Below, piece after piece: positions 4,306 through 63,433 of a stretch of DNA of 64,000 bases. The notes below the pieces were generated by a model, which made no database searches, was not told the origin of the DNA, and was given only the letters and a program-made list of their open reading frames with translations. The translations under genes were made by a program, and so were the position numbers. The DNA is from Candidatus Latescibacterota bacterium (GTDB lineage: Bacteria > Latescibacterota > UBA2968 > GCA-2709665). Each line of letters opens with the position of its first letter. Position 1 is the stretch's first letter. The stretch is from assembly GCA_965222075.1 (NCBI GenBank), contig OZ244937.1, positions 1,984,001 through 2,048,000 on the forward strand, in the 5' to 3' direction.

Positions 4306-7300
4306 AACAACGAAAGCTGCCCGGCTGCCTTTTCCTTCCGCCCCGGCGGCTCCAGGTGCTCCTGGTGAATGAGGTCCGCTGGAATGTCCCGAACAAACGG
4401 TGAAACCTCCGGCCGAATACGCTGGCCGTAGCGCAGCCTGCTCCGGGCGCTTAAAAGCACCACCTCGTCCCGTGCCCGCGTCAGCCCCACGTAAAACAGC
4501 CGGCGTTCCTCGGCCAGGTCCGCGCCCCGCTCCCGGTATGGAATCAGACCGTCCTCCACCCCGCAGATAAACACCACCGCGAACTCCAGCCCCTTGGCCG
4601 CGTGGAGCGTCATCAGCGTCACCGCCTCCGGCCGACCATCCCCACCTGCCCGCTCGTAGTCCGCCTCCCGCCCCATCAGCACCGTATCCAGCAGCTGCTC
4701 CATCGAAGGCGTGTTCGCCGCCACCCGGACCAGGCATTCGAAATCGGAATCGCCCCCGGCGCCGAATTCCTCCTGCCACTGCCCCAGCAGGTCCTCCGGA
4801 CGCCCCGCCACTGCCAGGCTTCGGAACCGCCCGGCCGCTTCTTTAAGCGTCGCGGCCTTCCGGGCAGCCGCCGGAGGCAGATCCTCGACACGCGCGTTGG
4901 CAAGCGCACCCTCTCCTGCGCGGCTTCGCAGCCGGGCAAGCGTGGCCCGGCCCGGGTGAAACGGCGGCAGTGCAAGGGCATTCAGAAACCGCAGGTCTCC
5001 CCCCCCGCGGAGGGCATAGCGGAAAAAGGCCAGGGCCTGGCGCACCGGCTCGGCCTCCAAAAAACCCTTCTGCCCCACAATCCGATAGGGCAATCCCTCC
5101 TGCAGAAAACAGGTCTCCAGTTCATCGGCCTGCCGTCCGGTCCGGAAAAGCACCCCGAAATCGCCAAAACTCCTTGCCGCCTCACCCCCGCTGCCTCCGG
5201 TTGCCCGATTGTCGGACTGGAGCATATCGGCCCCGCCTACCATCCGACCGATCTCCCGCACCACGGCAATCCCTTCGGCCGTCTCGCCCGGCACCGAAAG
5301 CAGCCGGCATCTGACCCCCTCGCCCCGTGCGGCAACCAGCGCCACCGGTTGCCGGCCTGCCTGCGTGCGTGAGTCAGCACGCGCAGGCAGGTCCGCATTG
5401 TGAGCAATCACCGCGCAAGCCGCACGCACGATCTGCCCGGTCGAACGGTAGGTCGTCTCCAGCACGACCTTGTGCGCAGACGGAAAATCCTCGAAAACCG
5501 AGGCAAAGTACGCCGGACTTGCCCCCCGAAACCCGTAAATCGCCTGGTCGGCATCTCCGATCACAAACAGCCCTTCCCCCTCACCTGCCATCATCCTCAC
5601 CAGGCGGTACTGCACCGCGTTCACATCCTGAAACTCGTCTACGAGCACGTGGCGAAAACGCTTCCGAACCCCCTCCAGCGCCTCCGCATCCACCTCCAGC
5701 AGTTCGAGCAGATCCAGAAGGACATCGTCGTAGTCCCGAACCCCGTAAGCCTCCAGCCGCTCCTGGTAGGCCCGGTAGACTGCCCGCAGATCGTCGCCTC
5801 CCTCAAACGCATCCGGCCTCACCCCCTTCGCCTTCGCCAGCGAAACGGCCGCCTCTGCATCGGCCCGGGAAACCGGGCGCCCGGCGCTGGAAATCGCATC
5901 GGCCAGGATCTCCCGGGCCTCCACCTCATCCACCACATCCTGAGACCCTTCCGGATGGTAGACCTTCAGCAGATCCAGTGCCACACTGTGAAACGTTCCC
6001 ACCCTCAGCGCTTCCAGCCCCTCAACCTCCGGCAGCAGCTCCCGGATGCGTCTGCGCACCTCCTCTGCCGACCGGTTCGTAAACGTCACTGCCAGGACCG
6101 CTCCGGGAGGGACGCCTCGCTCCCGGAGCAGATAGGCCGCCCGGTGCGTCAACACCCGCGTCTTGCCCGTCCCCGGCCCGGCCACGACCACCACCGGCCC
6201 GGCCGCCGACCGCACCGCCGCCCCCTGCCGATCATCCAGCCCCTCGCCCGTTCCTGCCTGCGCCGGATGCTCGGCAGGCAGGCAGGTTTCAGGTTGCCCT
6301 GTTCCCTCCTCCGTCAACCCGGGAGCTGGAACCTTGAACCCGGAACGCGCTTTCCTTTCCGGCCGGCCTGCCGGCAAGGCAGGGGCAGGGAGCACGGCGC
6401 AGGCAGGCATCTCAAACAGCGTCCCCTGCCCGCTCATCAGCGCCCGGTCCGCCTCTGAGAAGACCTGAATTTCGCCGTATACCCCGTCGTACCCGGCCAC
6501 AATCTCCACTTCTCCCGCCCGCATCCGGCGCACCCCCTCCGCCACCAGCGGTTGCCCGCAGCGGGCGACCTCCTCTACCGGAACCGTCCGCAGGATGTGA
6601 AGCTCCGGTCCCAGGTCGGCCAGCAGCCGGTGATAGACCGTCTGCACCTTCTTGCTGGTTGGCCCCACGCCCAGGGCCGATCCGATAATCTCGGGCAGCG
6701 GAATCAGGTTCTCGTAAGGCCGTGTCCCCTCCGACCGCGCTCCCTCCGACCGGTCGGCCAGGGCCTCCACCCGGTGGAGCACCCCCACCGTCAGCTTGCC
6801 TCCACAGACCGGACAGACCCCCTTGGCGGCAAGCGTCTCCACCGGCTTCCAGCGCACCTCACATTTCCGGTGGCCGTCCCAGTGGTACTTGCCCTCCTCA
6901 GGGTAAAACTCCAGCGTACCCAGAAATCGGTCCGGGTCCCGCGTCTTCAGCGCGTCGTAAATTGCGCCATAGGAAAGCTCGGTATCAAAACACGTCCCCT
7001 CCCGCGCCAGCTTCTGCGGCGAATGCGCGTCCGAATTGGAGACAATCGCGTAGCGGTCCAGCATGGACAGCCGCCAGTTCATCGGCGGATCGGAAGACAG
7101 CCCCGTCTCCACCGCGAAGATATGGGGCAGCATATCCTCGAAGCAGGCCTCCAGGCTGTCGAACCCCGAGCTGGACCCTAAAACCGCGAAGTGGGGCGTC
7201 CAGATGTGCGCCGGGATAAAGAGCACATCCGCACACGCCTCCAGGCAGATCTCCACCAGGTCCCGGCTGTCCAGCCCCAGAATCGGCCGTCCGTCCGACG

Positions 7301-7697
7301 CCAGGTTGCCGATCTCCGAAAGCCGGGCGTTCAGCCGCTCGACCGCCTCAAAATCGGGCATCAGCACCATGTGGTGAACCTTCCGGGTCCTGCCATCCTT
7401 CTTGTAAATCACACTGATCTCGGTCGAAAGCAGGAACCGCACCTCCCCCCGGCAGGTCGGGTACAGCTCGGCCTCAACCGGCGCGCGGAATTCATCCTTC
7501 AACCGGTAAAGCCCCGCCTCCGCCGGCGCCAGCTGCTCCTTCAGCTCCGCGATCCAGGCCGGATGGGTAAAGTCCCCCGTTCCCACAACCGTCAGCCCCT
7601 TGAGAGATCCCCATTTATAAAGGTTCTCCGGATTCAGCGCCCTGCTGGTGGCCCGGGCGAACCGGGAATGCAGGTGTAGATCGGCAACAAAACGCAT
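4302..7697 (-). CDS. PHP/endonuclease Q-like domain fused to UvrD/Rep SF1 helicase
   Basis: N-terminal DLHLHS, GTGDFTHP, PAHIWTP, NSDAHS, CPVCG; C-terminal AGPGTGKT, DEFQD, GDADQAIYGFRGA, TLHAAKGLEF, EERRLFYVGLTRA. Confidence 0.9.
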   Translation of the reverse strand: MRFVADLHLHSRFARATSRALNPENLYKWGSLKGLTVVGTGDFTHPAWIAELKEQLAPAEAGLYRLKDEFRAPVEAELYPTCRGEVRFLLSTEISVIYKKDGRTRKVHHMVLMPDFEAVERLNARLSEIGNLASDGRPILGLDSRDLVEICLEACADVLFIPAHIWTPHFAVLGSSSGFDSLEACFEDMLPHIFAVETGLSSDPPMNWRLSMLDRYAIVSNSDAHSPQKLAREGTCFDTELSYGAIYDALKTRDPDRFLGTLEFYPEEGKYHWDGHRKCEVRWKPVETLAAKGVCPVCGGKLTVGVLHRVEALADRSEGARSEGTRPYENLIPLPEIIGSALGVGPTSKKVQTVYHRLLADLGPELHILRTVPVEEVARCGQPLVAEGVRRMRAGEVEIVAGYDGVYGEIQVFSEADRALMSGQGTLFEMPACAVLPAPALPAGRPERKARSGFKVPAPGLTEEGTGQPETCLPAEHPAQAGTGEGLDDRQGAAVRSAAGPVVVVAGPGTGKTRVLTHRAAYLLRERGVPPGAVLAVTFTNRSAEEVRRRIRELLPEVEGLEALRVGTFHSVALDLLKVYHPEGSQDVVDEVEAREILADAISSAGRPVSRADAEAAVSLAKAKGVRPDAFEGGDDLRAVYRAYQERLEAYGVRDYDDVLLDLLELLEVDAEALEGVRKRFRHVLVDEFQDVNAVQYRLVRMMAGEGEGLFVIGDADQAIYGFRGASPAYFASVFEDFPSAHKVVLETTYRSTGQIVRAACAVIAHNADLPARADSRTQAGRQPVALVAARGEGVRCRLLSVPGETAEGIAVVREIGRMVGGADMLQSDNRATGGSGGEAARSFGDFGVLFRTGRQADELETCFLQEGLPYRIVGQKGFLEAEPVRQALAFFRYALRGGGDLRFLNALALPPFHPGRATLARLRSRAGEGALANARVEDLPPAAARKAATLKEAAGRFRSLAVAGRPEDLLGQWQEEFGAGGDSDFECLVRVAANTPSMEQLLDTVLMGREADYERAGGDGRPEAVTLMTLHAAKGLEFAVVFICGVEDGLIPYRERGADLAEERRLFYVGLTRARDEVVLLSARSRLRYGQRIRPEVSPFVRDIPADLIHQEHLEPPGRKEKAAGQLSLF
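5356..5391. repeat. 36-bp CCTGCCTGC...GCAGGCAGG palindromic element inside the UvrD gene
   Basis: cctgcctgcgtgcgtgagtcagcacgcgcaggcagg; removal gives HNADRQPVAL. Confidence 0.85.
6253..6282. repeat. 30-bp palindromic element in the PHP-UvrD linker
   Basis: cctgcctgcgccggatgctcggcaggcagg, identical to 63384-63413. Confidence 0.85.
6363..6407. repeat. 45-bp composite palindromic element in the PHP-UvrD linker
   Basis: Minus strand cctgcctgcgccgtgctccctgcccctgccttgccggcaggccgg (PACAVLPAPALPAGR); one arm has a mismatch. Confidence 0.65.
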
Positions 7698-7942
7698 GGA
7701 AAATCCCCTGACCTGGAAAAAACCGACAGAGACGAACCGTGGCCCATAGGTCTCCTCTATCGAAAAGAGCACACAAAGACAATATCTCACCGCGTCAGAA
7801 CGGTTCCTGTGATCAGACAATATAAGAAAATAATTCCCGCAAGTAATGTTCAAAATAAATGGATGGACACCGTCCGGACGCCCATCCATTTCCATTGAGA
7901 AGTTGCTTGTCGGGTCAGGATTCTGAAGTCGATTTAACCTGC

Positions 7943-8482
7943 CTAAGCGCTTCGAGTTTGTTTTGAAGCTCTCGCTCGAAGAGCGCCAATCCGGCCGGCG
8001 AACCGCATATAGACAAACACCGGCTTCGGCGTGATGATCAATTCCGGTATTAGGGCGTGATGCGTGTTCTTCATAGTCACCCCGACGGCGTGGAACCCGT
8101 ATTTTTGACTCAGGGACACAATCTCGGATGTCCTGTCGTAGGTCATCAAGAAATCCGTGCCGCTGTCGGCAAGCATCTCAAACAGCCGCGGATGATCTAT
8201 CTCGTTGTGGGCGTAAAGCCGTCTGCCCGCGCGCTTGCCGCCGGCCGTATATGGCGGGTCTACGAAAATCACCTCGGCACCACTGGCGTCTGACCTGCCT
8301 GCCGCGCTATGCTTGGCGCAGGCAGGTCCATAACCGCGGTTGGCCAACAACTCCTCCAGCAACTGCATGCCGTCCGTTTCCCGAAAGTCGATGCGGTCTG
8401 CGTGCCGCCCAATCTCCCGCAAGCGATTCACAATGGTTTCGGGATACCAACGGGACGCGTCGAAACCCGAAGGCCTGGACAC
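7943..8482 (-). pseudogene. 5'-truncated Dam/D12-type DNA adenine methyltransferase remnant
   Basis: IFVDPPY catalytic motif plus FLMTYD and ELII; the N-terminal SAM-binding FxGxG half is missing; abuts the stop of the upstream gene. Confidence 0.7.
8294..8326. repeat. 33-bp palindromic element inside the methyltransferase remnant
   Basis: cctgcctgccgcgctatgcttggcgcaggcagg (reads PACAKHSAAGR on the minus strand). Confidence 0.85.
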
Positions 8483-8488
8483 CTCTTT

Positions 8489-9760
8489 CTACTCAACGCC
8501 TGCCTGCGCTAAGGCTGCCCGGATATCTTCTTCTGCTCGATAGCCCACCGTATAACTCTGCACAATCCCATCTTTGTCGATCACCAGCGTCGTCGGGATG
8601 CCCTGCACCTTGTAGAGTCCCCACACCGCCTTCCCCTCATCTGTCAGCGTCGTGAACGTATAGCCCTTCTCCTGCGCGAACTTTCCGCGCCACCTCTGCC
8701 GGTTCCGCATTGATCCCCAGAACAACCAGCCCCTTCTCTTTAAACGCGTATAGCCCTTCTCCTGCGCGAACTTCCGCGCCACCTCTGCCGGTTCCTGCCC
8801 CTTCTCTTTAAACTCCTCGTGGAGCTTCTGAATATGCGGAAGCGCCTCGACGCACGGGCGGCACCAGGACGCCCAGAAATCGATCAGCACCGTCTTGCCG
8901 CGCAAAGACGTCAGACGGACCTCTTTCCCATCCAGGCCCTTGAGCGCAAACTCCGGCGCCTCTTTTTGCAGCACGCCCGCCTGCTGCGCCTGCGCATCCT
9001 GCATCCTTTTCATCATCGCATTGCCGTCGCCCACCGGCACGCCCGCCAGCGGCGTGTACACAAACAGGGAATCCGCTGCCTCAACGTCGAACGCCAGGTC
9101 CTGAATCGTGAAACTCATCAGCGCATTGCCCGCTTTGTCGTACACATCCATCGTTCGGACAAAACCGTCCCTGGCCCCTACCCGGAACTGCATCCGGTCA
9201 ATCGGCATCGGGCCGGTCTGCGCGCCGGACCTGGGTTTGAGATCGACCACGTAAGCCGGCGCCCCTGAGACCTCATCCATCCCGCTGACCTTCAGGTCGA
9301 ACTGGAGCATCACCTGGTTCTTGAGCTCCTCGATCCGGTCGGCATCCACCGTCCCCCAGGGACCCAGGCCGCTGACCTGCGCCGCCGCGCTCGCATCCAT
9401 CGTGGCAAGGTCATATTTGACCACCTGAAGCCCCATCGGCATCTTCACCGTCTGCCACATCGTCTCTCCATTGGAGATAACCGAAGTCGTCATCTCCCCT
9501 ATCGGCATGGACATTCGGATCACAACGCGGAGCTTCCCGGGGCTCTTCAGCATCCCCTCCCCCTCTCCCGTTATCGTCTGTCCCATCATCGAAGCTGTCT
9601 GTGTAAACGTAAACCTCGCAGTCCGGGTTCGAGTCGAACGCGCTTTCATCAGATCGAACAGCCCATCCACATCGATGTCCGCGGGCTTAAGGGCCTCCTG
9701 TGCGCCGGTCAAAGACCCACAGACGAAGAGCAGCGTAACGGCCCGGATAATGTGCTTCAT
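8489..9760 (-). CDS. secreted LolA-like domain plus TlpA/ResA thiol-disulfide oxidoreductase (Trx domain internally scrambled)
   Basis: Signal peptide MKHIIRAVTLL; LolA-like FTQT/LKSPGKLR/FVYTP; APEFALKGLDG, DFWASWCRPC, GIPTTLVID. Confidence 0.75.
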   Translation of the reverse strand: MKHIIRAVTLLFVCGSLTGAQEALKPADIDVDGLFDLMKARSTRTRTARFTFTQTASMMGQTITGEGEGMLKSPGKLRVVIRMSMPIGEMTTSVISNGETMWQTVKMPMGLQVVKYDLATMDASAAAQVSGLGPWGTVDADRIEELKNQVMLQFDLKVSGMDEVSGAPAYVVDLKPRSGAQTGPMPIDRMQFRVGARDGFVRTMDVYDKAGNALMSFTIQDLAFDVEAADSLFVYTPLAGVPVGDGNAMMKRMQDAQAQQAGVLQKEAPEFALKGLDGKEVRLTSLRGKTVLIDFWASWCRPCVEALPHIQKLHEEFKEKGQEPAEVARKFAQEKGYTRLKRRGWLFWGSMRNRQRWRGKFAQEKGYTFTTLTDEGKAVWGLYKVQGIPTTLVIDKDGIVQSYTVGYRAEEDIRAALAQAGVE

Positions 9761-10288
9761 CTCATACCCTCCACAGGTAAGGGTTTTCAATGGAATTTAG
9801 ACTATAACCTGAGTTTGATGATTGACAGTTTGGATCGCGGCGCTGTAAGTGAGGAGAACCTGACCTTTCTTTGGGGTTGATCCCCAAAGGGTTACGAGGT
9901 CTTGACAAGGAAGCAACTTGGGGTAAACCCAATGCGGATGGCTGGGTTTATGGCCACGGCAGCTTCTCAATAACCTCTTACAAAATATACATGATTAGAA
10001 AAAACGTCACAAGTAGATTGTAAGTGCGCTTTTGACAGGTGCCAACTCCGGTATCGACGAAACGATTGCTTGAAAGTACATACAGACAACCCCCTTACCT
10101 GTCAACGCCTTACATCCCAGACCCACCGGCTCCTTTACAACTTGCCGTCCCCCCATTTTTCTTTGTAACTTATGTGACACCGCCATCAGAAGTTCGCTCC
10201 TGTTAGTACCGTGTTGTTTTCTATGTGATTCCGTATGGTGGTTCTGTGGCGCTCTTGAATTTCCAGTTCAACCAAATGAGGATAAACG

Positions 10289-11065
10289 ATGGAATCCCTA
10301 ACCCTGCTTTCCGGCCACACAATGCCTGTTGTCGGCCTTGGCACCTGGCCGCTGAAAGGCCAACAGTGCAAACAGGTCATCAAAAAAGCCCTTGAACTCG
10401 GCTACACCCACTTCGACACCGCCTGGATCTACAAAAACCAGCGTGAAATCGGCGAAGCGCTCCGGGAGGCCGGTGCTGACCGTTCACAACTCTTCATCAC
10501 CTCCAAAGTCGGCAAAGATTACCTGCAATATGAAGTCGCCCTGAAACAAGCCGACGAGATCCTCCGGCATCTCCGGATGGACTACCTGGACCTGCTGCTC
10601 GTCCACTGGCCCAGCGAAACCGTGCCCATGGAAGAAACCATCAGCGCTTTCAACGAAATTTTCGACGCCGGAAAAGCCAGAAGCATCGGCGTCAGCAACT
10701 TCTCGGTCGAACAAATGAAACGCGCCCGATCCCTCTCCGCAACACCGATCAGCGTCAACCAGATCAAATACCATCCGGGCTACGAACAGCGAGATATCCT
10801 GCAATGGTGCCTGGGAAACAACGTAGTCGTAACCGCCTACTCCCCTCTGGGCAAAAAAAACATCCTTCAAGATCCCCTCCTGTTGGAGATCGCCCGCATC
10901 CATAACAAAACGCCTGCACACGTCGCCCTCAAATGGCTGGTCCAAAAAGGCATGATCATCATCCCCAAAGCCAGCTCCAAAGAGCACCTCCAGGCCAACC
11001 TGGATGTCTTTAACTGGTCCTTATCCCAAAACGAGATGCAGTCCATCGACCGAATCGCGGGGTAA
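10289..11065 (+). CDS. aldo/keto reductase (DkgA/B-like)
   Basis: GLGTW, FDTAWIY, ITSK, LLVHWP, IGVSNF, AYSPLG, IPKAS. Confidence 0.92.
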   Translation: MESLTLLSGHTMPVVGLGTWPLKGQQCKQVIKKALELGYTHFDTAWIYKNQREIGEALREAGADRSQLFITSKVGKDYLQYEVALKQADEILRHLRMDYLDLLLVHWPSETVPMEETISAFNEIFDAGKARSIGVSNFSVEQMKRARSLSATPISVNQIKYHPGYEQRDILQWCLGNNVVVTAYSPLGKKNILQDPLLLEIARIHNKTPAHVALKWLVQKGMIIIPKASSKEHLQANLDVFNWSLSQNEMQSIDRIAG

Positions 11066-11242
11066 AGAACGCGCTTGAATCGGACGTTTTGCGGCCAGAG
11101 AGCGGAGGGTGTGACCGAGGTTCGAGCGGCGGAGTCGGGCGAGGCGCTGGAGGTACATGACGTAGAGCTCGAAGGGCGGAACTGCAGGCGGGGGTGATGC
11201 TGGCGCAGATGGAGAAAGCCGAGGAGATTCAGGTCTTCAAAA

Positions 11243-11338
11243 CAGACCGTCAAGACGGCAACGCAAGGAAAAACCACCGGCTACGACGCCGGAAAAAAAG
11301 TAAAGAGGCGCCAAGCGATACCGGCGTGTAGATACCGA
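11243..11338 (+). mobile_element. IS5-family transposase remnant
   Basis: Translates as QTVKTATQGKTTGYDAGKKVKRR..VDT, resembling the IS5 DDE motif SVKT..GYDxGKKVKGRKRH..VDT. Confidence 0.6.
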
Positions 11339-11356
11339 GAAGCTGTGCAGCGAGGT

Positions 11357-14179: not shown

Positions 14180-14202
14180 ACCGTCCAGGGGAGGAGACAA
14201 GC

Positions 14203-48125: not shown

Positions 48126-48135
48126 AGACTCAACC

Positions 48136-51700: not shown

Positions 51701-54579
51701 GTGTGAACGTAGGACGGCTTGCCGTCCAGGCGGGATCGCAGGTCGTAGCCCGTGATGGGCGTGCCGCCGCTATTCTCCGGCGCCGTCCAACGGATGACCA
51801 GGTAGGCGGGCCGTGGGGACGTCAGGGTCGGTGGATCCGGTTTCCCCGGCGGTTCGCTCTCGTTGGTGACGGTGACAGTGATCGTCTGCTCGGCGGTCAG
51901 CGCGCGGCCTCCCTCGCCGCCGATTACCGTGACCACGACGATGTATGTGTTGTTCCTTCCGTCGTCCGTGGGATTCTCGAAGTTGGTGGCATCCTTGAAG
52001 GTCAGCACGCCCCCGCTATTGATCTCAAGCAGGTCACGGTCAGCACCGCCGGTGACCTCGTAGCCGGTGATGCCGTCGTTCCTGTCGACGTCGGTGGCGG
52101 TCACCCGGCCGACGGACTGCTCGTTTTCATCGACCTTAAAGGCATCGTCGCTGGTGAAATGAGGCGGCTCGTTCACGTCGGTAACGGTAACGGTGATCGT
52201 CTGTGCTGCGGTCAGGGCCCGGCCTCCCGCGCCGCCGGTGGCCGTGACCGCGACGCTGTACTGGTTGTTCCTTCCGGAGTCCTTGGGATCCTCGAAGTCG
52301 GGGGCATCTTTGAAGGTCAACGCGCCTCCGCTGTCGATCTCGAACAGGTTCTGGTCCGACCCGCCGGTGATGGTGTAATTCGTGATATCGTCGGCACTAT
52401 CCTCATCACGGACGACCACTGCGCCAACTGTCGTGCCATTTTCTACCGTCTCGAAGGTCGCGTCGCTGGTGAACGAGGGCGGCTCGTTGACGTCGTTCAG
52501 GTTGATCAACACGCGGATGGTGCGCTCACCGCTGTGCCCGTCGGTTGCTTTGATACGCAGAACGTAGCGGGACTTCGCCTCGTAGTTGTAGGTCTGATCC
52601 GATTTGGTCCGAACTTGACCGCTGCGCGTGTCGATGGTGAAGGCATCTGCGTCTGTGCCTTCCAGGCTGTAGGTCAGCGTCGTGTTCTCGGGATCGGTTG
52701 CGCTTACCGGATCGCCGATGTTCTGCGCGCCCGTGGTGTTCTCGTCGAGGCTGCGCGTGGCGCTCGACCCGTCGGTGAAGACCGGCAGCTCATTGGCGCT
52801 GGTGCTTCCCGTGCCCGACGGCGACCAGTCGCTCGCGCCCTCGGCGTTGCGCGCGCGCACCTGCGCCTCATAGCTCGTTCCCGGGGTCAGGTTGGTGATG
52901 GTCGCGGTCAGGTTCACGCTGTTGTGTGTATAGGAGGTAAAGCCGCCGCTGTCCCCTTCGCGGTATTGGATGTCGTAGTCGTTGATGTCGGGGCCGGTGT
53001 TGGCCGGCTCGGTCCAGGTCACCGTCAGGCTGGTGGAAGAGGCCGCTGAGACGCTGGGTGCTGCCGGGGTCTCGGGCGGTTCCTGTTGGTCTATCAGATT
53101 GATGGTCACCTCGATGGTGTTGCTACCGCCCTGATCGTCTTCTACGCGAACCGTTACCTCGTAGCTGTTCTTCTCTTCGTAGTCGTAGGTTTCGCTCGCT
53201 CTGGTTTGTAGCTGGTTGCCGTCGAGAGCGAAGGACGCCCGGTCCGTGCCTTCGAGACGGTAGGTCAGTGTCCCTCCGTCGCCGTCGGTGGCGGTTACCG
53301 GATTGCCGACGTCCTGCGTGCCCGTCGTGTTCTCCGCCAACCTGCGGGTGGTGCTCGATCCTTCGGTGAAGGTGGGGGCCTGGTTGGCGACGGTTCTCAC
53401 ATCTGCTGATTGGGACCACTGGCTCTCGCCTTCGGGACTACGTGCTAACACCTGCACCTGGTAGAGCGTGTTGGCTTTCAAGCCGGTGATGGTCGTGCTC
53501 CTGCCGGGGCCATTGTGTTGCCAGTCGGTGAACGTGCCGCCGGTTTCCCTGTACTGAATGTCGTAGTCGTTGATGGCAGGACCGGTGTTGATGGGAGCTG
53601 TCCAGCGTATGGATAGGCTACTCAGCGTCGAGGCAGTGACTGCCGGCTTGTCGGGTCTTTCTGGTCGTTCGTTATCGTCATCGGTCACTTCTATCGTCAC
53701 TGTGATGGTCGCCCGCCCGCTATGCTCGTCCTGTGCCTCTACCCTGACCGTATAGCGATCCTTCGTTTCGTAGTCGTAGGTGACGCTCGTCCCGGTCTGC
53801 AGTTGACCGGTGTTCGGGTCGATGGCAAAACTCTCCGTATCCCCGCTGGCGAGGCGGTAACTCACCGTGCTACCCTCGGGATCGGTCGCTCTTACCGGAT
53901 CGCCGACGTCCTGGACGCCTGTCGTGTTCTCGACCAGGCTGCGCGTGGGCGCGGACTCGTCGAATGCCGGCGGCTGGTTGGCACTGGTCGTGCCATAGCC
54001 CGAGGGAGACCATGCACCCGTGCCTTCGTCATTGGTCGCCCGCACCTGCACCTCGTAGCGCGTGTTCACCTTCAGGTCCGCAATCGTCGTGGTCGTGCCC
54101 GTGTTGTGTTGCCAGGGGAGGAAGCTGCCACTACCTGTCCGATATTGCACGTCGTAGTCGTCGATATCAGGACCGGTGTTGACAGGAGCCGTCCACGTCA
54201 CCGTCAGGCTGGTGGATGAGGCCGGCTGCACCTGCGGCCTGTCCGGCGCCTCGGGCGGTTCGTCCACGTCGGCCACATGGATCGTCACGGCAATGGTGGC
54301 ATTGCCGCCGTGACCGTCGTCTGCGGTTATTGTCACCGAATAGCGATTCTTTGTCGCTTCGTGGTCGTAGGTGACGCCCGATAGGGTGCGCAACTGACCG
54401 TTACCTGCGTTGATAGCGAATGAACCGGCATCGTCCCCGCTGAGGCGATAGGTCAGGCTGTGACGGTCGGCATCGGTGGCGCGGACCGGATGCTGGATGT
54501 TTTGACCTGCCGCCGTGTTCTCGGCTACGGTGCGGTTGGTGCCTGGACCGTCGTCGAAGGTCGGAGCATTATTCTGACC

Positions 54580-54648
54580 CGGCGGAGGAGGTGGAGGCGG
54601 TGGAGGCGGTGGCGGCGGCGGAGGTGGAGGCGGTGGTGGAGGCGGTGG
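54580..54648 (-). repeat. poly-proline linker (23 Pro)
   Basis: Run of CCN codons; paralog has 21 Pro plus 1 Arg at 60249-60314. Confidence 0.9.
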
Positions 54649-56178
54649 TGATGTCACGACGACCCTGAAGGTGGTTTCCACACGGTTGCCCTGCGCATCA
54701 ATCGCGGTGAGGGTGATGGTCGCACGACCTGGCCTGTTAGAGGTGATCCTCACCACCGAACCTGAAACACTCACCGCTGCCACATTGGGTTTGGACGAGG
54801 ACACCTCATATTTCAAGGTGGCCTCAGAACGGAAGAGGCCAGACACATCCACAGCCTCCTCACTCCCTTCCGGATTTAGTGTCTGCGTGTCTATTGAACC
54901 AACGACCTCTATGGGCTTCACGAACAGGCGCAGCGGACCGCCCACACCCGTCCGGATACCCTGATAGCCTTCCGGCGCCTCAGACACAGACTCCAGGCTT
55001 ACACAGTCACATTGTCCCCACGCTGCGTCACGGTGATGGGCGTGCTCCTGGTGCTGCCCGCTTCTATGGTGGCCTCGCTGTGCGACAGGCGCCCACCCGT
55101 GACGGACAGACGCACACCCATCTTGAACGGCGCACCCTCGGGAAGGGTGACCCTCACCCTCGCCGGACCGGGTGCAAACACATCCGGCGTATCTGTCCGT
55201 TTCAGTGCCAGCATAAGCGGGAAGGGCGCGCCCGGGTTGTGGTCCAACCACAGCCGTTGCAAACCGGACAATTCGGAGAACACACCCGAAGGCAGCGTGT
55301 GCAACTTGTTCACATAAAGCAACAGGATCTGCAGGTCGGACAGGTCGGAGAACACGCCTCCGGGCAACACGGTCAAAGCATTGCCCCCCAGGTCCAGCCG
55401 TTGCAGGTTGGACAATTTGGAGAACACGCCTCCGGGCAGGCTGCTCAGAGCATTGGCGCCAAGCTGGAGGTCCTGTAAGCTGTCCAGACCGGAGAAGATA
55501 GCTTTGGGCAATGCGGTCAGACTGTTGCTGCCCAAACGCAGGACGCTCAGGTTGGACAGACCGGCAAAATCACCCGCCTTCAAAGCCGTGATCTCCTGCT
55601 TTCTCAAATACAGGGTATCCCTGATCGTGCTCAAGTGCGCCTCTGTGACCAGCGCGCAGTCGGTGATCTCCGGAATCAGGGATAAGAGCACGTCGCGCAC
55701 CTGTGGGGTGCGCCCGCAGATCCCCGGCGCGGTCAGCAGCACGGTTACGGCAATCTCCTGCGTGGCACTCCAGCGGTCATCACTAACTGTGACGGTGATG
55801 GCTGCACGCCCCACAGCCACAGGGCGGATGGTCACGATGGAATCAGACACACTCACCGTCGCAACCGCGTCATCGGACGATGCTGCCGTGTAGGTCAGCG
55901 CCTGACGGCCCGGATGGGTGAACGCGCTTGCCGCATTCACGCGAACGTCGCCATCGCCCAGGATCAGGGTCTGCGCAGGAATAACGCCCACAGGCACCGG
56001 CCCTCCCACAGGTGTGCCGGAAACAGGGGCTGACCATGCACTGGCCCCCTCCTCGTTGAGCGTGCGCACACGCACCTGATACACCTGGTCGTTGGTCAGC
56101 CCCGTCAGCGTGATACTCGTATCGGCGCCACTGCTCAGGGTCTGCCCACTCCCCCATTCACCGCTATCCACAGTCCGG

Positions 56179-56265
56179 CCTGTCTGCGTGCCACGCACAG
56201 GCAGGCCTGCCTGCCCGCCTGCGCGCTGCGCGCGGGCAGGCGCCGAGTCCTGCGCGGCAGGCAGG
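56179..56265. repeat. 87-bp cluster of three palindromic elements inserted in frame in an FN3 domain
   Basis: 27 bp (56179-56205) plus a 33-bp element interrupted by a 27-bp element (56214-56240); absent from the paralog at about 61830-61850. Confidence 0.92.
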
Positions 56266-57424: not shown

Positions 57425-57453
57425 GTAGCGGGCGACCGGCCGGTCGCCCCTAC
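57425..57453. repeat. GTAG-type REP palindrome
   Basis: Minus strand GTAGGGGCGACCGGCCGGTCGCCCGCTAC, lying between the two giant genes. Confidence 0.7.
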
Positions 57454-57512
57454 ACGGAGACGTCCGCTTCGCGGCGTGCCCTTCGCAGCGCCGGTCTCTC
57501 TCACAGCCGGAA

Positions 57513-60500
57513 TCACTCATCGACCTGGGTGCCGAAAACCCAGGGACGCGCCTGCTTGATCGCCAGGACGTCGTCGCTGGTGATCTTGAACTCGATCTCC
57601 ATGGCGAACGGTTCATCGGCTGCGGGGTCGTACAGCTCCTCGAACTCCTCGTGGATCACCTCGAGACGTTCTCTCAACTGGCGCATTTGGTCACGGCTCA
57701 TGAGGAGTTGCCCGGGCGGCACCTGGTTGGAGGTCCCAAGGATGATGTAGGGAGGTAGGAAAGGCGGGTTCAACAGGACTTCCTCCGGCACCGAGTGCGC
57801 GTCGGGATTGGTGACCAGATCCTCGCCGACCTGCGTGTTGACGTAGTAGCGCCCGTCACCGCCGTAGATGGGGTCGAAGCTGACGGCCACGCCGTTGGCC
57901 AGTTCGTCCCTGTAGCTGGGATGCACCAGGATGCCCATCGCCGCCGCCATGTGATCGATGCGATGGAAGTCGCGTTCGACGAAGGCGCGGAAGTTCCACA
58001 GGCTGGCGTACACTTCCTTGAGGGACTTGGCGAGATCCTTCTCGTCCTCGCTCGGCTTCTGGCTCTTGGAATCATACAGCCCCGCGCCGTTGAAGCCCGG
58101 CAGGTCCTCGTTGTTGGTGCTGGACCGGTAGCGGCGGTTGATCCCTGCGGAGAAAGACTCATTCATTGTCTCGATTGCCGAGATGATCCAATCCGGCGTC
58201 TCCGCGTCTTCGATGGCCTTGCGCAGCTTCTTGAGTGAGTCCGCCTGGGCTTCGAAGTCCGTCTGGAAAGCTTCGTCGGCCAGCATGGTTTCAATGCGGG
58301 TGTAGAACCCGTTGTGCTTCATGAACTCGTCGTAGAAGTAGAACGGGATCGCGAAGCCGTCGGGCACCGTCCCCTCCGGAAACCCCAGCGTCCCCAGCAC
58401 CGCCACGTTGGCCGCCTTGACGCCGAACGCGTCCCAGTCATCGAAGCCGATCTCACTGAGCGGCGTGATCTCCGTGACCTCGAGGTCCCGTTGCGGCGTC
58501 TGCGTTGTGGCGGGTCGGGACGATTCGTAGTGGGCATCGACCTCCGCGCGGGTGGCTGCCCGGATCGAGTATCCGTCCCCGGTCACCGTGTAGTGGACGT
58601 GGCTGCCGATGAGAGCATCGATGTCGTTCTTGTCGAGGGCGCCGCGGATGAAGGCGTTGGGAATGCCGTCCTGCACGGCGCGCAGGTTGACATGCGAGAG
58701 CGCCGTCTGGGGCACGGTGGAGATGATGCCGGCGACGCGGGGCAGCTCGTTGGGCAGCGCCTCGTAGATCACGATGTCGCGCGGGTGAGGCCGCTCGTCC
58801 GGGTCCATGACCCGCAGCAGGCCGTACCCCTCCCCCGGGTTCAACGCCAGAAAACTGGTTTCGTCGAGGAACTCATCGTCGAACACGAGGTTGATTCGGG
58901 ACTCCCTGTACAATGGCAAGTCGGATTGGGAATGCACAAGAGCGTCGTTCGATATGTAGAACGCCAGGTCGTCCTCAAGCAGCGGCATGCTGGCGGCAAG
59001 CAGCGTATGGGCGCGCGCCACGACGCTGAAGGAGTACGGATGCTGGCGATAGCTCCACCAGTAGCAGTAGACTCCCGGACTGCCATCGGGGGCAACGAGA
59101 TTCCCACGACGCATGAGACTGCCTTCGATCATCCCCTCCTGTCCCAGCTCGATGCCGATGGCCTCCAGGAACTCTTCATGAATCAAGGTGGTTCTGGTGT
59201 TCATGAAGTAGAGACGCGGGCTGTCGGTGTGCATGCCGAGCAGAACGAACTTGAGGTAGTACCCGCTAAAGGAGATCGCCTTGAATGTTTCCAGATCGGG
59301 AATGGCCAGTGCGCCGGTGGTGAATTCCACGGCCGCGGCAGGGTTGACCGGGTTCATGTCCACCGTGTCGAGTTCGGTGAGGTCGTCAATGCAGTCGCCG
59401 TCGACGTCGGCCGGGTCGGTGACGAGGTACTTCTCCACCCGGTAGCGCTCCCTGGGCAGGGCCGCCACGTTCTCGGCCAGCGTGGTCGTGCCCGCTTCGC
59501 CGCGCTTGACCAGGACCGGCGTCTCTACCGTCGCGCCATCCACGTCGTGCCGGACGTAGAGCACGAAGTACCAGTCGGTCGTGGACGCGACCACGATGGG
59601 CACCGCCGTCACTTCCACTTCCACCGGCGTCGGGGCGTCGGCGCCTTCTGTACAGATCCCCCCCACGCCCGAGGACGACCACTCGCCCGTGCCTTCGTCG
59701 TTGGTTGCCCGCACCTGCACCTCGTAACGGGTGTTGACCTCCAGGTTTGTGATGGTTGTCGTCGTGCCGGCGTCGTGCGGCCAGGGGAGGAAGCTGCCGC
59801 TGCCCGCACGATATTGCACGTCGTAGTCCTCGATGTCAGGACCCGTGTTTGTCGGTTCGGTCCAGGTTACGGTCAGGCTGGTGGACGAAGCTGCCTCGAC
59901 CCTCGGGGCAGACGGCCTCCCGGGCGGTTCCTCGACGTCGGCCACGTGGATGGTGACGTCAATCGTGGCCGTGCCGCCGTTGCGGTCGTCGGCTTCCACC
60001 ATCACCAAATAACTATTCTTTGTCGCTTCGTAGTCATAGGTGACGCCCGATCGGGTGCGAAGCTGACCGTTGCCTGCGTTGATGGCGAATGAATCGGCAT
60101 CGGCCCCGTTCAATCGGTAGGTCAGCCGGTGTCCGTCCTCATCGGTGGCGCGGACCGGATGCTGGATGTTCTGGTTCGCCTCGGTGTTCTCGGCCACGGT
60201 GCGGGTGGCGCTCGGGCCCTCGTCGAAGGTCGGGGCCTGATTGGGACCCGGCGGTGGAGGCGGCGGACGTGGAGGCGGCGGAGGCGGCGGAGGCGGCGGG
60301 GGCGGCGGCGGGGGTGATGTCACGACGACCCTGAAGGTAGTTTCTACACGGTTGCCCTGCGCATCAATCGCGGTGATGGTGATGGTCGCACGACCCGGCC
60401 TGTTGGAGGTAATCCTCACCACCGAACCCGAAATGCTCACCGATGCCACATTGGGTTTTGACGACGACACCTCATACGTCAAGGTGGCTTCAGCACGGAA

Positions 60501-62978
60501 GAGGCCCGACACATCCACCGTCTCCTCACTCCCTCCCGGGTCCAGCGTCTGCGTGTCAACAGAACCGACCACCTCTATGGGCTTCACGAACAGACGCAGC
60601 GGATCGCCCACACCCGTCCGGATACCCTGATAGCCTTCCGGCGCCTCAGACACGGACGCCAGGCTTACCACGGTCGCGTTGTCCCCACGCTGCGTCACGG
60701 TGATGGGCGTGCTCCTGGTGCTGCCCGTTTCTATGGTGGCCTCGCTGTGCGACAGGCTACCGCCCGTGACGGACAGACGCACACTCATGTTGAACGGCGC
60801 ACCTTCGGAGAGGGTGACCCTCACCCTCCCCGGACCGGGTGCAAACACATCCGGCGTATCTGTCCGTTTCAGTGCCAGCATAAGCGGGAAGGGCGCCCCC
60901 GGGTTGCGGTCCAACCACAGCGATTGCAAGCTGGATAGCCCGGCGAATATACCCTCGGGCAGCGTGTGCAACTTATTCACATAAAGCAACAGGGTCTGAA
61001 GGTCGGACAGGTCGGAGAATACACCTTCGGGCAACACGGTCAAAGCATTGCCCCCCAGGTCCAGCCGTTGCAGGCTGGACAATTTGGAGAACACGCCGTC
61101 GGACAGGCTGCTCAGGGCATTGGCGCCAAGCTGGAGGTCTTGCAAGCTGTCCAGACCGGAGAAAATACCCTCGGGCAATGCGGTCAGACTGTTGCTGCCC
61201 AAACGCAGGACGCTCAGCCTGGACAGGCCGGCAAAATCACCCGCCTTCAAAGCCGTGATCTCCTGCCTCCTCAAATACAGGGTATCCGTAATCGCGCTCA
61301 GGTGCGCCTCTGTGACCAGCGCGCAGTCCGTGACCTCCGGAATCAGGGATAGGAGCGCATCGCGCACCTGTGGGGTGCGCCCGCAAATCCCCGGCGCGGT
61401 CAGCAGCACGGTTACGGCAATCTCCTGCGTCGCACTCCAGCGGCCGTCGTTGGCTGTGACGGTGATGGCTGCACGCCCCACAGCCACAGGGCGGATGGTC
61501 ACGATGGAATCCGACACACTCACCGTCGCAACCGCGTCATCGGACGATGCCGCGCCATACGTCAGCGTCCCCTCACCCGGATGGGTGAACGCGCTTGCCG
61601 CATTCACGCGAACGTCGCCATCGCCCAGGATCAGGGTCTGCGCAGGAATGACGCCCACGGGCACCGGCCCTCCCACAGGTGTGCCGGAAACAGAGGCTGA
61701 CCATGCACTGGTCCCCTCCTCGTTGAGTGTACGCACACGCACCTGATACACCTGGTCGTTGGTCAGCCCTGTAAGCGTGATACTCGTATCGGTGCGACTG
61801 CTCAGGGTCTGCCCGCCCTCCCATTCACCGCTGTCTCCAGGCAGGTGCGTCACCTCATACCCGCTCACCGGGGGCTTGCCCACTTCGTCGGACGCCGCAT
61901 CCCAGCGCACCGTCAATGCGCTGTCACCAGGCGTGACCACCACACCCGGGGGCGGCGCAGCAGGCGGCTCGTCCACATCGGTGACGGTGATGCCCACCAC
62001 AAGACTGGCACGGCCCCCCTCACCGTCACTGACGCGCACGATCACCGAGTAGCTGCTTTGCGCCTCAAAATCATACGCCCCCTGTGTCCGTATCTGCCCC
62101 GTGCCCGCGTCAATGGCAAAACTGTCCGCATCCGCGCCACGCAGACGGTACGCGAGGGTATTGCCATCCGCATCGGTGCCGGAGACGGGGGTGCCGATAT
62201 TTTGTCCCGCCGGAGTGTTCTCAGCGATGGAACGCGTCACCAGCGTCGAGGTGAACACCGGCACGCGGTTCACCGTATTGCCAAAGCTTCGGGCAAAGAT
62301 CTCAAAGTCGTCAAACCCGACCCCCCCATCGCTGTCCAGGTCGTACTTTCCCCCATACTTCTCATCACCCTCCCGATACCCGAACGCGCCTGCAAACAGC
62401 ACAAAGTCCGCAAAATCCACCAGCCCGCTCCCGTCGAAGTCCGGAGAAGGGGGCGCGGCGACCTGTAAGGCAACGCTGAGGGATAGCGTCACCGCCCCGG
62501 TTTGTTCACCCCGGCCCAGTTCAGCGCCCATCAGCCGAATCTCCGTCTCCAAAAACACATCCGTGGTGCGAAATCGCACCGTGCCGATCAGACCTGTATT
62601 CACCGTAGACCCACTCAGGGACGCGATGCCGACCCGAACAGTAGTCGAGTCCTGCTCTACAAGGACCTGCGCATCGGGCAACACATCGCCCGCATCAAAC
62701 CCCCCGTAAACAACCTGAGTCGAATCGTATTCAATGCGCGCGGAAAGACTGCTCGCACCTTGAATATCACTGCCAAAAATCTGAATGGAAACCACCTGGT
62801 CGGGAGACACGTCGAGAGAAGATACGCCCTGGTCGCCAGCGGCATCGTCCAGATCCAGCGCAAGCGAAAAACTGCTGGTCTGTGTGGATAGCGACCACGG
62901 GGAAATCAGGAGCGCCAGGCTCAGCACACTGACGATGACAAGCGCGAAGGGAAATACATAAGGTTTCACGCGATCCAA
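57513..62978 (-). CDS. giant secreted protein: cohesin-like, dockerin, cadherin/FN3, LRR, poly-Pro, C-terminal PEP/pyruvate-binding (dikinase ATP-grasp) module
   Basis: N-terminal hydrophobic segment; DFDGSGLVDFADF; LRR units LQxLxLxxNxL; C-terminal GVKAAN, VPDGFAIP, RSSTNNED, AGLYDS, EIEFK, KQARP; start may be GTG 62969. Confidence 0.88.
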   Translation of the reverse strand: MDRVKPYVFPFALVIVSVLSLALLISPWSLSTQTSSFSLALDLDDAAGDQGVSSLDVSPDQVVSIQIFGSDIQGASSLSARIEYDSTQVVYGGFDAGDVLPDAQVLVEQDSTTVRVGIASLSGSTVNTGLIGTVRFRTTDVFLETEIRLMGAELGRGEQTGAVTLSLSVALQVAAPPSPDFDGSGLVDFADFVLFAGAFGYREGDEKYGGKYDLDSDGGVGFDDFEIFARSFGNTVNRVPVFTSTLVTRSIAENTPAGQNIGTPVSGTDADGNTLAYRLRGADADSFAIDAGTGQIRTQGAYDFEAQSSYSVIVRVSDGEGGRASLVVGITVTDVDEPPAAPPPGVVVTPGDSALTVRWDAASDEVGKPPVSGYEVTHLPGDSGEWEGGQTLSSRTDTSITLTGLTNDQVYQVRVRTLNEEGTSAWSASVSGTPVGGPVPVGVIPAQTLILGDGDVRVNAASAFTHPGEGTLTYGAASSDDAVATVSVSDSIVTIRPVAVGRAAITVTANDGRWSATQEIAVTVLLTAPGICGRTPQVRDALLSLIPEVTDCALVTEAHLSAITDTLYLRRQEITALKAGDFAGLSRLSVLRLGSNSLTALPEGIFSGLDSLQDLQLGANALSSLSDGVFSKLSSLQRLDLGGNALTVLPEGVFSDLSDLQTLLLYVNKLHTLPEGIFAGLSSLQSLWLDRNPGAPFPLMLALKRTDTPDVFAPGPGRVRVTLSEGAPFNMSVRLSVTGGSLSHSEATIETGSTRSTPITVTQRGDNATVVSLASVSEAPEGYQGIRTGVGDPLRLFVKPIEVVGSVDTQTLDPGGSEETVDVSGLFRAEATLTYEVSSSKPNVASVSISGSVVRITSNRPGRATITITAIDAQGNRVETTFRVVVTSPPPPPPPPPPPPPPPRPPPPPPGPNQAPTFDEGPSATRTVAENTEANQNIQHPVRATDEDGHRLTYRLNGADADSFAINAGNGQLRTRSGVTYDYEATKNSYLVMVEADDRNGGTATIDVTIHVADVEEPPGRPSAPRVEAASSTSLTVTWTEPTNTGPDIEDYDVQYRAGSGSFLPWPHDAGTTTTITNLEVNTRYEVQVRATNDEGTGEWSSSGVGGICTEGADAPTPVEVEVTAVPIVVASTTDWYFVLYVRHDVDGATVETPVLVKRGEAGTTTLAENVAALPRERYRVEKYLVTDPADVDGDCIDDLTELDTVDMNPVNPAAAVEFTTGALAIPDLETFKAISFSGYYLKFVLLGMHTDSPRLYFMNTRTTLIHEEFLEAIGIELGQEGMIEGSLMRRGNLVAPDGSPGVYCYWWSYRQHPYSFSVVARAHTLLAASMPLLEDDLAFYISNDALVHSQSDLPLYRESRINLVFDDEFLDETSFLALNPGEGYGLLRVMDPDERPHPRDIVIYEALPNELPRVAGIISTVPQTALSHVNLRAVQDGIPNAFIRGALDKNDIDALIGSHVHYTVTGDGYSIRAATRAEVDAHYESSRPATTQTPQRDLEVTEITPLSEIGFDDWDAFGVKAANVAVLGTLGFPEGTVPDGFAIPFYFYDEFMKHNGFYTRIETMLADEAFQTDFEAQADSLKKLRKAIEDAETPDWIISAIETMNESFSAGINRRYRSSTNNEDLPGFNGAGLYDSKSQKPSEDEKDLAKSLKEVYASLWNFRAFVERDFHRIDHMAAAMGILVHPSYRDELANGVAVSFDPIYGGDGRYYVNTQVGEDLVTNPDAHSVPEEVLLNPPFLPPYIILGTSNQVPPGQLLMSRDQMRQLRERLEVIHEEFEELYDPAADEPFAMEIEFKITSDDVLAIKQARPWVFGTQVDE

Positions 62979-63361
62979 CCTGCCTGTGCGTGTTCGCTGT
63001 GTTGTGTCTCGTTAGAAACGGAAATATCTATATACAGGCAAAATACGTGCCAGATCTCAAAAATATGCCTAACCCATTGCTGTTGAACGAGTTAGGCAGA
63101 ATATATGAGCAGCGGAGAATTTTGGGAAATTGTCGCAAAATGCAACGCCCAAACCCCTCCGAAGAACAAGCCCATGTCTTTATAACTGACTGTTTATTAA
63201 TGTATTTATAGGAAAGTTGTAAGGCGGGAACGAAAGAATGTTGCAACTTGCAATGGGTGTTGCAACTTGCAACATTAAAGGTGGGTGGTACCGGGGAACC
63301 GTCGCTGAGGAGGGAGTCGTCGAGGCGTATCAGGTAAAAAGAGAGGTTTCACACGGCCCAA

Positions 63362-63433
63362 CCTGCCTGTGCGCCTGCCTGCGCCTGCCTGCGCCGGATG
63401 CTCGGCAGGCAGGCCGTTGGCACGGCAGACAGG
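63362..63433. repeat. nested palindromic elements (intergenic)
   Basis: 30-bp element 63384-63413 inside a 30-bp element (63374-63383 plus 63414-63433), preceded by an orphan arm 63362-63373. Confidence 0.85.

Follow-up and report, generated by a model that had tools for sequence, protein, structure and literature searches.

Short hairpins of about 33 nt that move into genes, between genes and into each other in a Latescibacterota genome

Can hairpins of 27 to 36 nt be mobile, what would move them, and how are they accommodated inside genes? The question is raised by a stretch of 64,000 nt from a Candidatus Latescibacterota bacterium (hereafter the window; positions 1,984,001-2,048,000 of a single 5.36-Mb contig, C1 of genome G000, 59.3% G+C), in which an earlier note had recognised seven copies of a small palindrome with inverted arms of about 9 bp and had proposed that they belong to a recently active, frame-preserving mobile element that adds peptides to proteins and is mobilised in trans. 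All seven copies were confirmed in place and in length: 5356-5391 (36 nt), 6253-6282 (30 nt), 6363-6407 (45 nt), 8294-8326 (33 nt), 56179-56205 (27 nt), and two composites of 60 nt at 56206-56265 and 63374-63433. The 30-mer at 6253-6282 recurs without change as the inner unit of the last composite (63384-63413), some 57 kb away, the 33-mer at 8294-8326 and the outer one of 56206-56265 are distinguished by 7 loop bases alone, CCGG stands immediately 5' of three copies (5356, 6363 and 56179), and no transposase was found beside the window copies, all as had been noted. Here we report that the family is mobile and has recently been active in this genome, and we weigh what might move it.

The evidence for movement comes from sites that are filled in the window genome and empty in relatives. 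Three copies lie in one gene, P0001 (4302-7895, minus strand; an open reading frame (ORF) of 1197 aa whose true start is probably near residue 66), which from its sequence motifs we take to encode a PHP-domain plus UvrD-type helicase, and orthologues of which were found in 18 of the 18 other confamilial genomes searched. On the minus strand the element at 5356-5391 is read as LPARADSRTQAG, and that at 6363-6407, a degenerate or composite one in the stretch that links the PHP domain to the helicase domain, as ACAVLPAPALPAGRP; both peptides occur in the window genome only and are absent from 11 of 11 aligned helicase orthologues, so that the proposed addition of peptides to real proteins is borne out. 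In the DNA of the same-genus genome G001, whose orthologue is 93% identical at the protein level, there are gaps of exactly 36 and 45 nt at these two elements, the empty sites reading GGTTGCC.GG.TCCGC and CTTTCC.GG.CATCTC. Contigs obtained independently from a public sequencing run (X1), of a lineage about 96% identical to the window genome, skip the same 36 nt (5353 to 5390, with 103 nt on the shorter side) and 45 nt (6360 to 6406, with 255 nt on the shorter side), and join 8290 to 8327 with only CGA between, so that the 33-mer at 8294-8326 is absent there. Contigs from runs of three other studies that are at least 99% identical (X19, X21 and X22) carry all four copies of window positions 4300-8600. 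X1 and G001 may represent the same lineage, in which case the two lines of evidence would not be independent.

Precise empty sites are available for three of these four copies, and identical 33-mers sit in unrelated flanks within the window genome. The family is therefore mobile and has recently been active in this genome, as had been supposed. That none of the 11 aligned helicase orthologues carries the inserts speaks against deletions as the origin of the empty sites in that gene. Also in agreement with the earlier note, no target duplication was seen at any junction of the three empty/filled comparisons or in 21 copies with AT-rich flanks from an Elusimicrobia genome; at the two cleanest empty sites, where GG belongs to the target as well as to the end of the element, the exact junction can be placed only to within 2-3 nt. 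The remaining copy, 6253-6282, had been singled out because its clean excision leaves a TGA, and its boundary is indeed complex, the cause being a diverged linker with ambiguous alignments to G001 and X1, together with an extension of the right arm by a register-shifted CAGG (6253-6286); it lies in the same PHP/helicase inter-domain linker and is read as ..CLPAEHPAQAG... The copy at 8294-8326 lies in a 179-aa ORF (7943-8482, minus strand), where it is read as PACAKHSAAGR.

How large is the family? Genome-wide, the 9-mer arm CCTGCCTGC and its complement GCAGGCAGG occur 233 and 246 times and rank second among the 9-mers. Within the window, 60 arms with at most one mismatch were counted, as opposed to 26.0 ± 5.0 in 100 shuffles (shuffle maximum 45), and in the whole genome exact arms no more than 150 nt apart stand in hairpin order in 173 cases, in reversed order in 5, and as same-arm pairs in 18, a frequency well above background. 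When one mismatch per arm was allowed and spacing was set to 19-66 nt, 425 left arms had a right partner, against 46 in the reversed control; this looser count corresponds to about 380 family copies genome-wide. Of the genome's hairpins with 8-nt stems, those of the family are the most numerous. Among the minimal exact pairs 76 of 143 are 33 nt long, the next simple lengths being 30, 27 and 36 nt, and a 60-nt spacing is found in 11 of the 173 exact pairs. The statement that every length is a multiple of three applies to the window copies and does not extend to the genome, in which 126 of the 173 exact pairs and 107 of 156 simple elements have 3n lengths.

The consensus consists of a 9-bp basal stem (CCTGCCTGC/GCAGGCAGG), a one-sided bulge of 2-3 nt, which gives the element an orientation, an apical stem of 4-6 bp and a loop of 3-5 nt. 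Sub-families differ in the apical stem, with compensating changes (CGAG/CTCG, CGCG/CGCG, GCGCAG/CTGCGC) and a total that stays constant at 33 nt. Folded as single-stranded DNA, the 30-36-nt window copies reach -10.5 to -15.2 kcal/mol (z -2.2 to -4.3), with -15.2 kcal/mol (z -4.27) for the element at 5356-5391 and -12.1 kcal/mol for that at 8294-8326; the intergenic 27-mer at 56179-56205, which has the variant arms CCTGTCTGC/..CAGGCAGG, is a weak hairpin (-6.7 kcal/mol, z -1.35). A search of the 64-kb window against Rfam 15 at the gathering threshold gave 0 matches.

The element begins with CCTG and ends with CAGG, between flanks of C(C/A)G(G/A) and a pyrimidine; the sequences at the three empty sites are CCGG^T, CCGG^C and CCGA^T. 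In a genome-wide tally of flanks, from which copies with duplicate flanks or inside a larger repeat had been removed, a purine precedes the element and a pyrimidine follows it, with purine in 171 of 200 pooled ends. The preference is equal in intergenic (48 of 54) and coding copies (32 of 38) and therefore reflects mechanism, not selection on the peptide. CMGR was found on the canonical 5' side of 25 of 92 copies, compared with a background of 2.9%, and on the other side of 10 of 92; about a third of the copies have GG or CC microhomology at the junction. A longer stem as the cause of the flank preference was ruled out by pairing counts, given that the stem stops at 9 bp (positions ±1 complementary in 50 cases versus 39 expected, positions ±2 in 19 versus 35).

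Insertion of copies into each other, another claim of the earlier note, was examined at 15 composite sites, which gave 19 possible parses. A parse was taken as nested when a solo copy of the inner unit exists elsewhere and what is left as the outer unit also has a solo counterpart, with at most one mismatch, and 12 of the 19 consist of one solo unit inside another. In the composite at 56206-56265, which is abutted by the 27-mer at 56179-56205, an outer 33-mer is split after CCTGCCTG by a 27-nt inner unit (approximately 56214-56240); the outer 33-mer stands solo at C1:507599 and the same composite arrangement recurs at C1:2253455. In that at 63374-63433 an outer 30-mer, which matches a solo copy elsewhere (at most one mismatch), is split after CCTGCCTGCG by the inner 30-mer, which has 4 solo copies. 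Two different inner units have entered one outer 30-mer at an identical internal position, and some composites have themselves been copied, a 27+33 composite being present at three sites. No orthologous sites of the window composites were found in relatives, nor any synteny with G001 at 63374-63433, and thus nesting is read from within-genome decomposition only.

Where the copies lie relative to genes was determined with a gene map from a rough codon-usage caller (3,758 ORFs, 84.7% coding). Of 156 simple elements 70 are in genes, 83 between genes and 3 on edges, in a genome of which about 15% is non-coding; the copies are enriched between genes, with a large intragenic minority (about 45%). 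Lengths of 3n were found for 53 of the 70 intragenic and 53 of the 83 intergenic elements (Fisher p = 0.12, before correction). Since most of the 17 intragenic "non-3n" cases are artefacts of delimitation (composite pieces, arms shifted by a 4-nt CCTG register, copies at ORF extremes), intragenic copies are essentially all net 3n and intergenic ones unconstrained. The 3n rule thus describes the copies within genes and is not a general property of the family, and the raw share of 3n lengths does not differ significantly between the two settings. The intragenic copies are read as xLPA..QAG in 29 cases, PAC..AGR in 15 and CL..RQ in 9, and 13 and 9 of 53 lie in the first and last deciles of the gene. 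Hosts in the window genome include two sigma-54 regulators, BamA, a kinase, an outer-membrane barrel and a UvrA of 1,922 aa that carries a composite. The simplest reading of the 3n rule is a stop-free master of 33 nt combined with selection against harmful insertions, and a frame-aware insertion is not needed.

What moves the hairpins? We consider it probable that they are non-autonomous mobile elements similar to repetitive extragenic palindromes (REPs), which an enzyme of the HUH type, similar to the REP-associated tyrosine transposases (RAYTs), mobilises in trans, and that copies in genes are filtered by selection. The hairpins, with a master length of 33 nt, would copy into new sites without target duplication, preferably at a purine/pyrimidine junction and often after C-(C/A)-G-(G/A), and those landing in the loops or stems of resident copies would give rise to the 60-nt composites. 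Insertion would be blind to frame, and copies in genes would persist if they are net 3n and stop-free and the peptide is harmless, a condition that, with a master of 33 nt, about half of all copies could satisfy; the peptides tolerated would mostly be xLPA..QAG loops at termini, linkers and surface positions. The enzyme would be a single-strand-specific HUH/Y1 protein, resident in the cell and working on more than its own REP, or else a visitor on phage or defence-island DNA. By analogy, an HUH enzyme acting in trans is the most likely agent. Elements of the IS200/IS605 family, which transpose as single strands by "peel and paste", have in common with the hairpins an asymmetrically bulged structure, insertion without target duplication and a 5' preference, here CMGR, which resembles the element's own 3' tetranucleotide.

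The following observations weigh against this proposal. Four classes of HUH/Y1 genes were examined (IS200-type TnpA, P0002, L205-type RAYT and L136-type RAYT), and none among these four is tied to the hairpin family; the RAYT or HUH gene flanked by family copies that the earlier note had suggested looking for was not found in the window genome, all three intact HUH genes of which (IS200-type TnpA, P0002 and L205-type) carry other hairpins instead. The intact IS200-type TnpA (C1:2071937-2072296) ends in hairpins of its own, the nearest 3 kb are free of family arms, and a second copy is broken; among relatives, strong IS200 matches do not track the number of elements (G004 has 32 matches and 0 elements). 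P0002, a protein of 255 aa that matches the NCBIfam RAYT model in part (55.6 bits, the cut-off being 80), has on either side a GTAG REP of its own, which occurs in 4 copies in the genome; this 255-aa RAYT-like gene (L167/L168, G000:C1:3242104-3242871) forms a REPtron bracketed by GTAGCACAAACTGnCAGTTTGTGC. Orthologues of it were found in G009, G012 and, with a TAG stop, G017 only. Matches of the P0002 class occur in 9 of 9 confamilial genomes with at least 6 elements and in 4 of 10 with at most 2; this co-occurrence is a hint of a link with an HUH enzyme, against which stands the kinship of the genomes, which are not independent. The L205-type RAYT, intact at C1:1858861-1859469, is accompanied by a GTAG-GGGCAACC REP of its own, and no arm of the family lies closer than 2.5 kb; 21 of 31 relatives have this type of RAYT, whatever their number of elements and even where they have none; in G009 family elements stand on both sides of it, within a duplicated segment.

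Closest in sequence to the family comes the L136-type RAYT, whose REP is GGCAGACA-GGAA-TGTCTGCC, i.e. G(A/G)GCAGACA-GGAA-TGTCTGC(C/T)C, and whose inward REP halves (CCTGTCTGC..gene..GCAGACAGG) are like the variant arms of the family; in G003 one family element lies 150 bp upstream of the gene and a half arm downstream. As mobiliser it was rejected, since it was not found in G000, G002 or G009, so that co-occurrence with the elements fails. Further afield, a RAYT-like gene is present in only 2 of the 113 cross-phylum loci among the matches listed (see below), and the Y1 genes of low-GC genomes have no flanking element; that all five of five distant genomes tested carry Y1-class genes is, in turn, a hint in favour of an HUH enzyme. 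Pfam Y1_Tnp at E ≤ 0.001 missed both REPtron RAYTs of the window genome. Both ends of the element lack the GTAG or CGTC tag, and no replichore or strand bias was seen in the window genome (26/22 and 23/26), whereas IS608 and ISDra2 reportedly show such a bias.

Several arrangements around the RAYT genes were seen in passing. The 203-aa RAYT at G000:C1:1858861-1859469 has two partial copies upstream and itself lies directly upstream of an ORF with what we take to be an HsdR-like N-terminus. In G009 (C7:57500-65200) a segment of about 3.4 kb with an L205-type RAYT is duplicated, and bordering each copy is a unit that combines a family element with a neighbouring hairpin, GACTCCCC..GGGGAGT; the element occupies the same site every time (TTCTG / element / CGACTCCCC), but the inserted elements are different. 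A tandem array in G013 (L214, C1:2121700-2126100) contains one L136-type RAYT unit, with about 677 bp between REPs, and after it two shorter units of about 233 bp, which have kept these ends but lost internal sequence; the array looks like a deletion series from an autonomous to a non-autonomous element. RAYT-like HUH domains also lie in frame inside ORFs of about 1,130-1,441 aa in G003 (L137, with two such domains) and G002 (L138), which presumably encode DNA methyltransferases; this would be a transposase domain translated within a host protein.

The distribution of the hairpins bears on the same question. Within 31 relatives the 27-36-nt pattern reaches 104 copies (G000) and 99, 77 and 63 in three confamilial genomes, and 0-13 elsewhere, the same-genus genome having only 6; the reversed-pattern control gave 0 in every relative, and the dominant sub-family differs between genomes. 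A scan with the exact 33-nt pattern over one genome per species returned at least 113 stretches, where about 10 would be expected by chance according to our estimate. As judged from the record titles of genomes and metagenome-assembled genomes (MAGs), the matches listed come from Latescibacterota (several chromosomes with multiple hits), Verrucomicrobiota, Kiritimatiellota, Lentisphaerota, Planctomycetota, Bacteroidota, Omnitrophota, Methylomirabilota, Desulfobacterota, Acidobacteriota, Nitrospira, Patescibacteria, Elusimicrobia, Chloroflexota and some Proteobacteria. Among these the full family architecture is present in 85 of 119 33-mers (80 of 113 loci), the pattern having been derived from the sub-families of the window genome, and identical 33-mers recur in MAGs titled for different phyla. 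Five distant genomes are multi-copy, an Elusimicrobia MAG (G035; 2.0 Mb, 36% GC) with 28 near-identical copies, followed by 6, 4, 3 and 2, and genomes of 0.8 and 1.2 Mb are among them. The AT-rich flanks in Elusimicrobia show that the element boundaries are exactly those of the 33-mer.

Many of the Elusimicrobia copies (L147-L166) lie inside runs of CAGA/CAGTG direct repeats, for example gtCAGAagtCAGAt / element / gaCAGAaaaCAGAag and CAGTggtCAGTg / element / gaCAGTggtCAGTgg, a setting that could amount to a composite repeat of larger size or to a target resembling iterons.

The pattern was also found in 16 viral contigs, 11 of which contain family members, two of them inside phage protease-capsid ORFs. 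When the 3,011 ORFs of the 113 loci among the matches listed were clustered, the largest cluster consisted of hairpin-containing type I restriction-modification (R-M) genes (HsdR in L080, L075 and L099; a methylase in L079). The HsdR of L075 has an 11-residue insert, DLPAATRTAQAG, exactly at a gap of L080 and L099, and these two have a common insert site (DLPAPSGARQAG / DLPAPGAARQAG) where L075 has a gap, so that two positions, each with an exact gap in a homologue, record independent events. Other hosts across phyla are a 1,062-aa methylase (L038), a PLD-SNF2 nuclease-helicase (L087), a Mur ligase, TsaD and a polyprenyl synthetase.

An alternative is that there is no dedicated transposase and that general host processes, for instance template switching or copying primed by microhomology, at replication forks or in the course of repair, with a start in the short homology of CAGG/CCGG-like targets to the CAGG-CAGG ends, could multiply the hairpin in any phylum after one arrival. 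That no cognate enzyme emerged from the four HUH classes is in its favour, as is the occurrence of the same arms in many copies in five genomes as different as those described, down to 0.8 and 1.2 Mb. The 2-3-nt ambiguity of the two cleanest junctions and the resemblance of the 5' flank CMGR to the element's 3' end CAGG would be expected of it, but GG or CC microhomology is limited to about a third of the copies. Copies in the window genome are strongly clustered, with up to 16 arms per 5 kb against a mean of 0.85, in neighbourhoods where the hosts are ordinary proteins, and the direct-repeat runs of Elusimicrobia point the same way; many of those Elusimicrobia copies, however, share longer flanks and may be copies of a larger repeat. 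Moreover, congeneric and confamilial genomes differ widely in copy number (6 versus 104, 0 versus 99) although their replication and repair machinery is presumably shared, and that arms, bulge position and the length of 33 nt are so strictly kept from phylum to phylum suggests that a specific protein recognises the hairpin. We regard a host process as unlikely.

An element-specific enzyme that is not of the HUH type, for instance a structure-specific recombinase or nuclease associated with R-M systems, could also travel on phages or defence islands, and the link of the hairpins with R-M genes and phage DNA would then reflect its vehicle. The viral contigs, with two copies in protease-capsid ORFs, the type I R-M genes as the largest hairpin-containing cluster, the methylase of L038 and nuclease-helicase of L087, and the patchy distribution among relatives are consistent with such a vehicle. 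Yet no recurrent neighbouring mobiliser gene emerged from the ORF clustering of the 113 listed loci, which yielded only host genes and repeat-derived ORFs, ordinary housekeeping genes are hosts as well, and the prominence of R-M genes is that of a raw cluster size; such an enzyme appears quite improbable.

That the hairpins are useful modules, kept between genes for RNA stability or termination, or in proteins as functional loops, and not as selfish DNA, is most improbable, because the peptides are dispensable, being absent from the 11 helicase orthologues and the approximately 96%-identical lineage, and because the hosts are unrelated proteins, three reading frames are used and the window has no Rfam match, even though the enrichment between genes, the covariation of the inner stem, by which structure is maintained, the position of approximately 12 copies in a dispersed repeat of about 300 bp, each directly upstream of a hairpin that resembles a terminator, and REPs reported, in a bioRxiv study (10.64898/2026.03.23.713779), to be active in E. 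coli 3'UTRs all speak for a function; usefulness would in any case be compatible with mobility.

The cross-phylum matches allow a more far-reaching proposal, which we put forward tentatively and regard as rather unlikely: one hairpin "species" of about 33 nt may circulate through a large part of the bacterial domain on phage and R-M DNA and amplify without a transposase of its own or of its lineage. If this is true, the hairpin would exploit a universal host function or a hairpin-specific enzyme and write LPA..QAG loops of 9-15 residues into proteins as diverse as Mur ligase, TsaD, HsdR and the capsid proteins of phages.

How does the family compare with known systems, if it is indeed composed of REP-like hairpins mobilised in trans? 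It shares with REPs and REPINs a size of 20-40 nt, GC-rich imperfect palindromy, tens to hundreds of copies, enrichment between genes, sub-families with compensating stem changes and a patchy copy number among relatives. Unlike them, it has no GTAG or CGTC tag, whereas two other REP families of the window genome carry GTAG, and no RAYT is flanked by it in a genome that has two genuine REPtrons with other REPs; about 45% of its copies are intragenic, nesting is frequent, and the same arms and bulge occur in many phyla and in phage contigs. The literature describes REPIN-RAYT systems as inherited vertically and specific to a lineage. The contrast with REPs drawn by the earlier note, that these are mostly extragenic, was overstated, given that the family too is enriched between genes and that REPs in frame within genes are reported in the text of Di Nocera et al. 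2013 (PMC3733652) for several species, many of them in replication and repair genes including UvrD/Rep, UvrA and RecBCD; the UvrD-type helicase with 3 copies and the 1,922-aa UvrA with a composite fit that pattern. The same text defines REPs by one palindrome end with a conserved tetranucleotide, GTAG or CGTC, and describes REPs of the CGTC group without a dedicated transposase, which the family resembles in this respect. No description of the CCTGCCTGC/GCAGGCAGG family was found among the literature matches listed, of which those for both arm strings seem, by title and beginning of the abstract, unrelated to bacterial repeats; the comparison with PMC3733652 covers its running text.

From IS200/IS605 elements the family differs in the missing replichore bias, the loose target motif and the single hairpin in place of two subterminal ones, and from miniature inverted-repeat transposable elements (MITEs) of DDE origin, with which it shares inverted arms, in lacking a target-site duplication. 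The Rickettsia palindromic elements (RPEs) are likewise palindromic and lie in frame in genes that stay functional, adding peptides to the products; RPE-1 elements, however, measure about 100-150 bp and are confined to Rickettsia, whereas the present elements are 27-36 nt long (60 nt as composites) and extend across phyla. Other ultra-short mobile repeats are the cyanobacterial short dispersed repeats (SDR) of 21-27 nt that Elhai et al. are said to have described in 2008, and the GC clusters or "byps" of yeast mitochondria, GC-rich palindromes that sometimes lie inside coding sequence; both also insert into each other and have no known transposase, but their sequences and hosts differ.

In-frame intragenic REPs are thus already known, and what sets the family apart is the absence of a tag and of a cognate RAYT, the frequent nesting and the spread across phyla and phages. 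REP-type repeats are usually seen as lineage-bound, placed between genes and served by a domesticated transposase, expectations which this family breaks. If the cross-phylum spread is confirmed, the hairpins would be among the smallest horizontally circulating mobile elements known, a natural experiment on the protein sites that tolerate an 11-residue loop, and a defined substrate of 33 nt, with its target preference and empty sites, for finding what moves orphan REPs. In practical terms, family copies break short-read assemblies, contigs ending at them, and create spurious indels in protein alignments.

A few further features of the genome and window deserve mention. A dispersed repeat of about 300 bp (G000:C1, for example at 391139, 1155662, 3992668 and 4835817; 12 copies aligned) contains one 33-mer immediately upstream of the terminator-like hairpin GGCCTTTTTCTTGGGCGAACAAGAAAAAGGCC and could be a MITE or a small RNA gene; the 32-nt hairpin alone is present in 47 copies in the genome. 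Relative to G001, two indels lie at the helicase gene, one of 42 nt, which is not a family element, at window positions 7764-7805, just upstream of the likely true start, and one of 8 nt near 4293, at the 3' end. Lone exact CCTGCCTGC arms with no partner stand at 8499, 39783 and 41210, and may be decayed copies or chance. Finally, the elements at 56179-56265 are flanked by two giant ORFs on the minus strand, 48826-55251 (2,141 aa) and 57513-62978 (1,821 aa), the DNA of which has paralogous matches of 70-80% identity in 5-10 places each in G003 and G002, suggesting that these ORFs belong to a multi-copy family of giant proteins.

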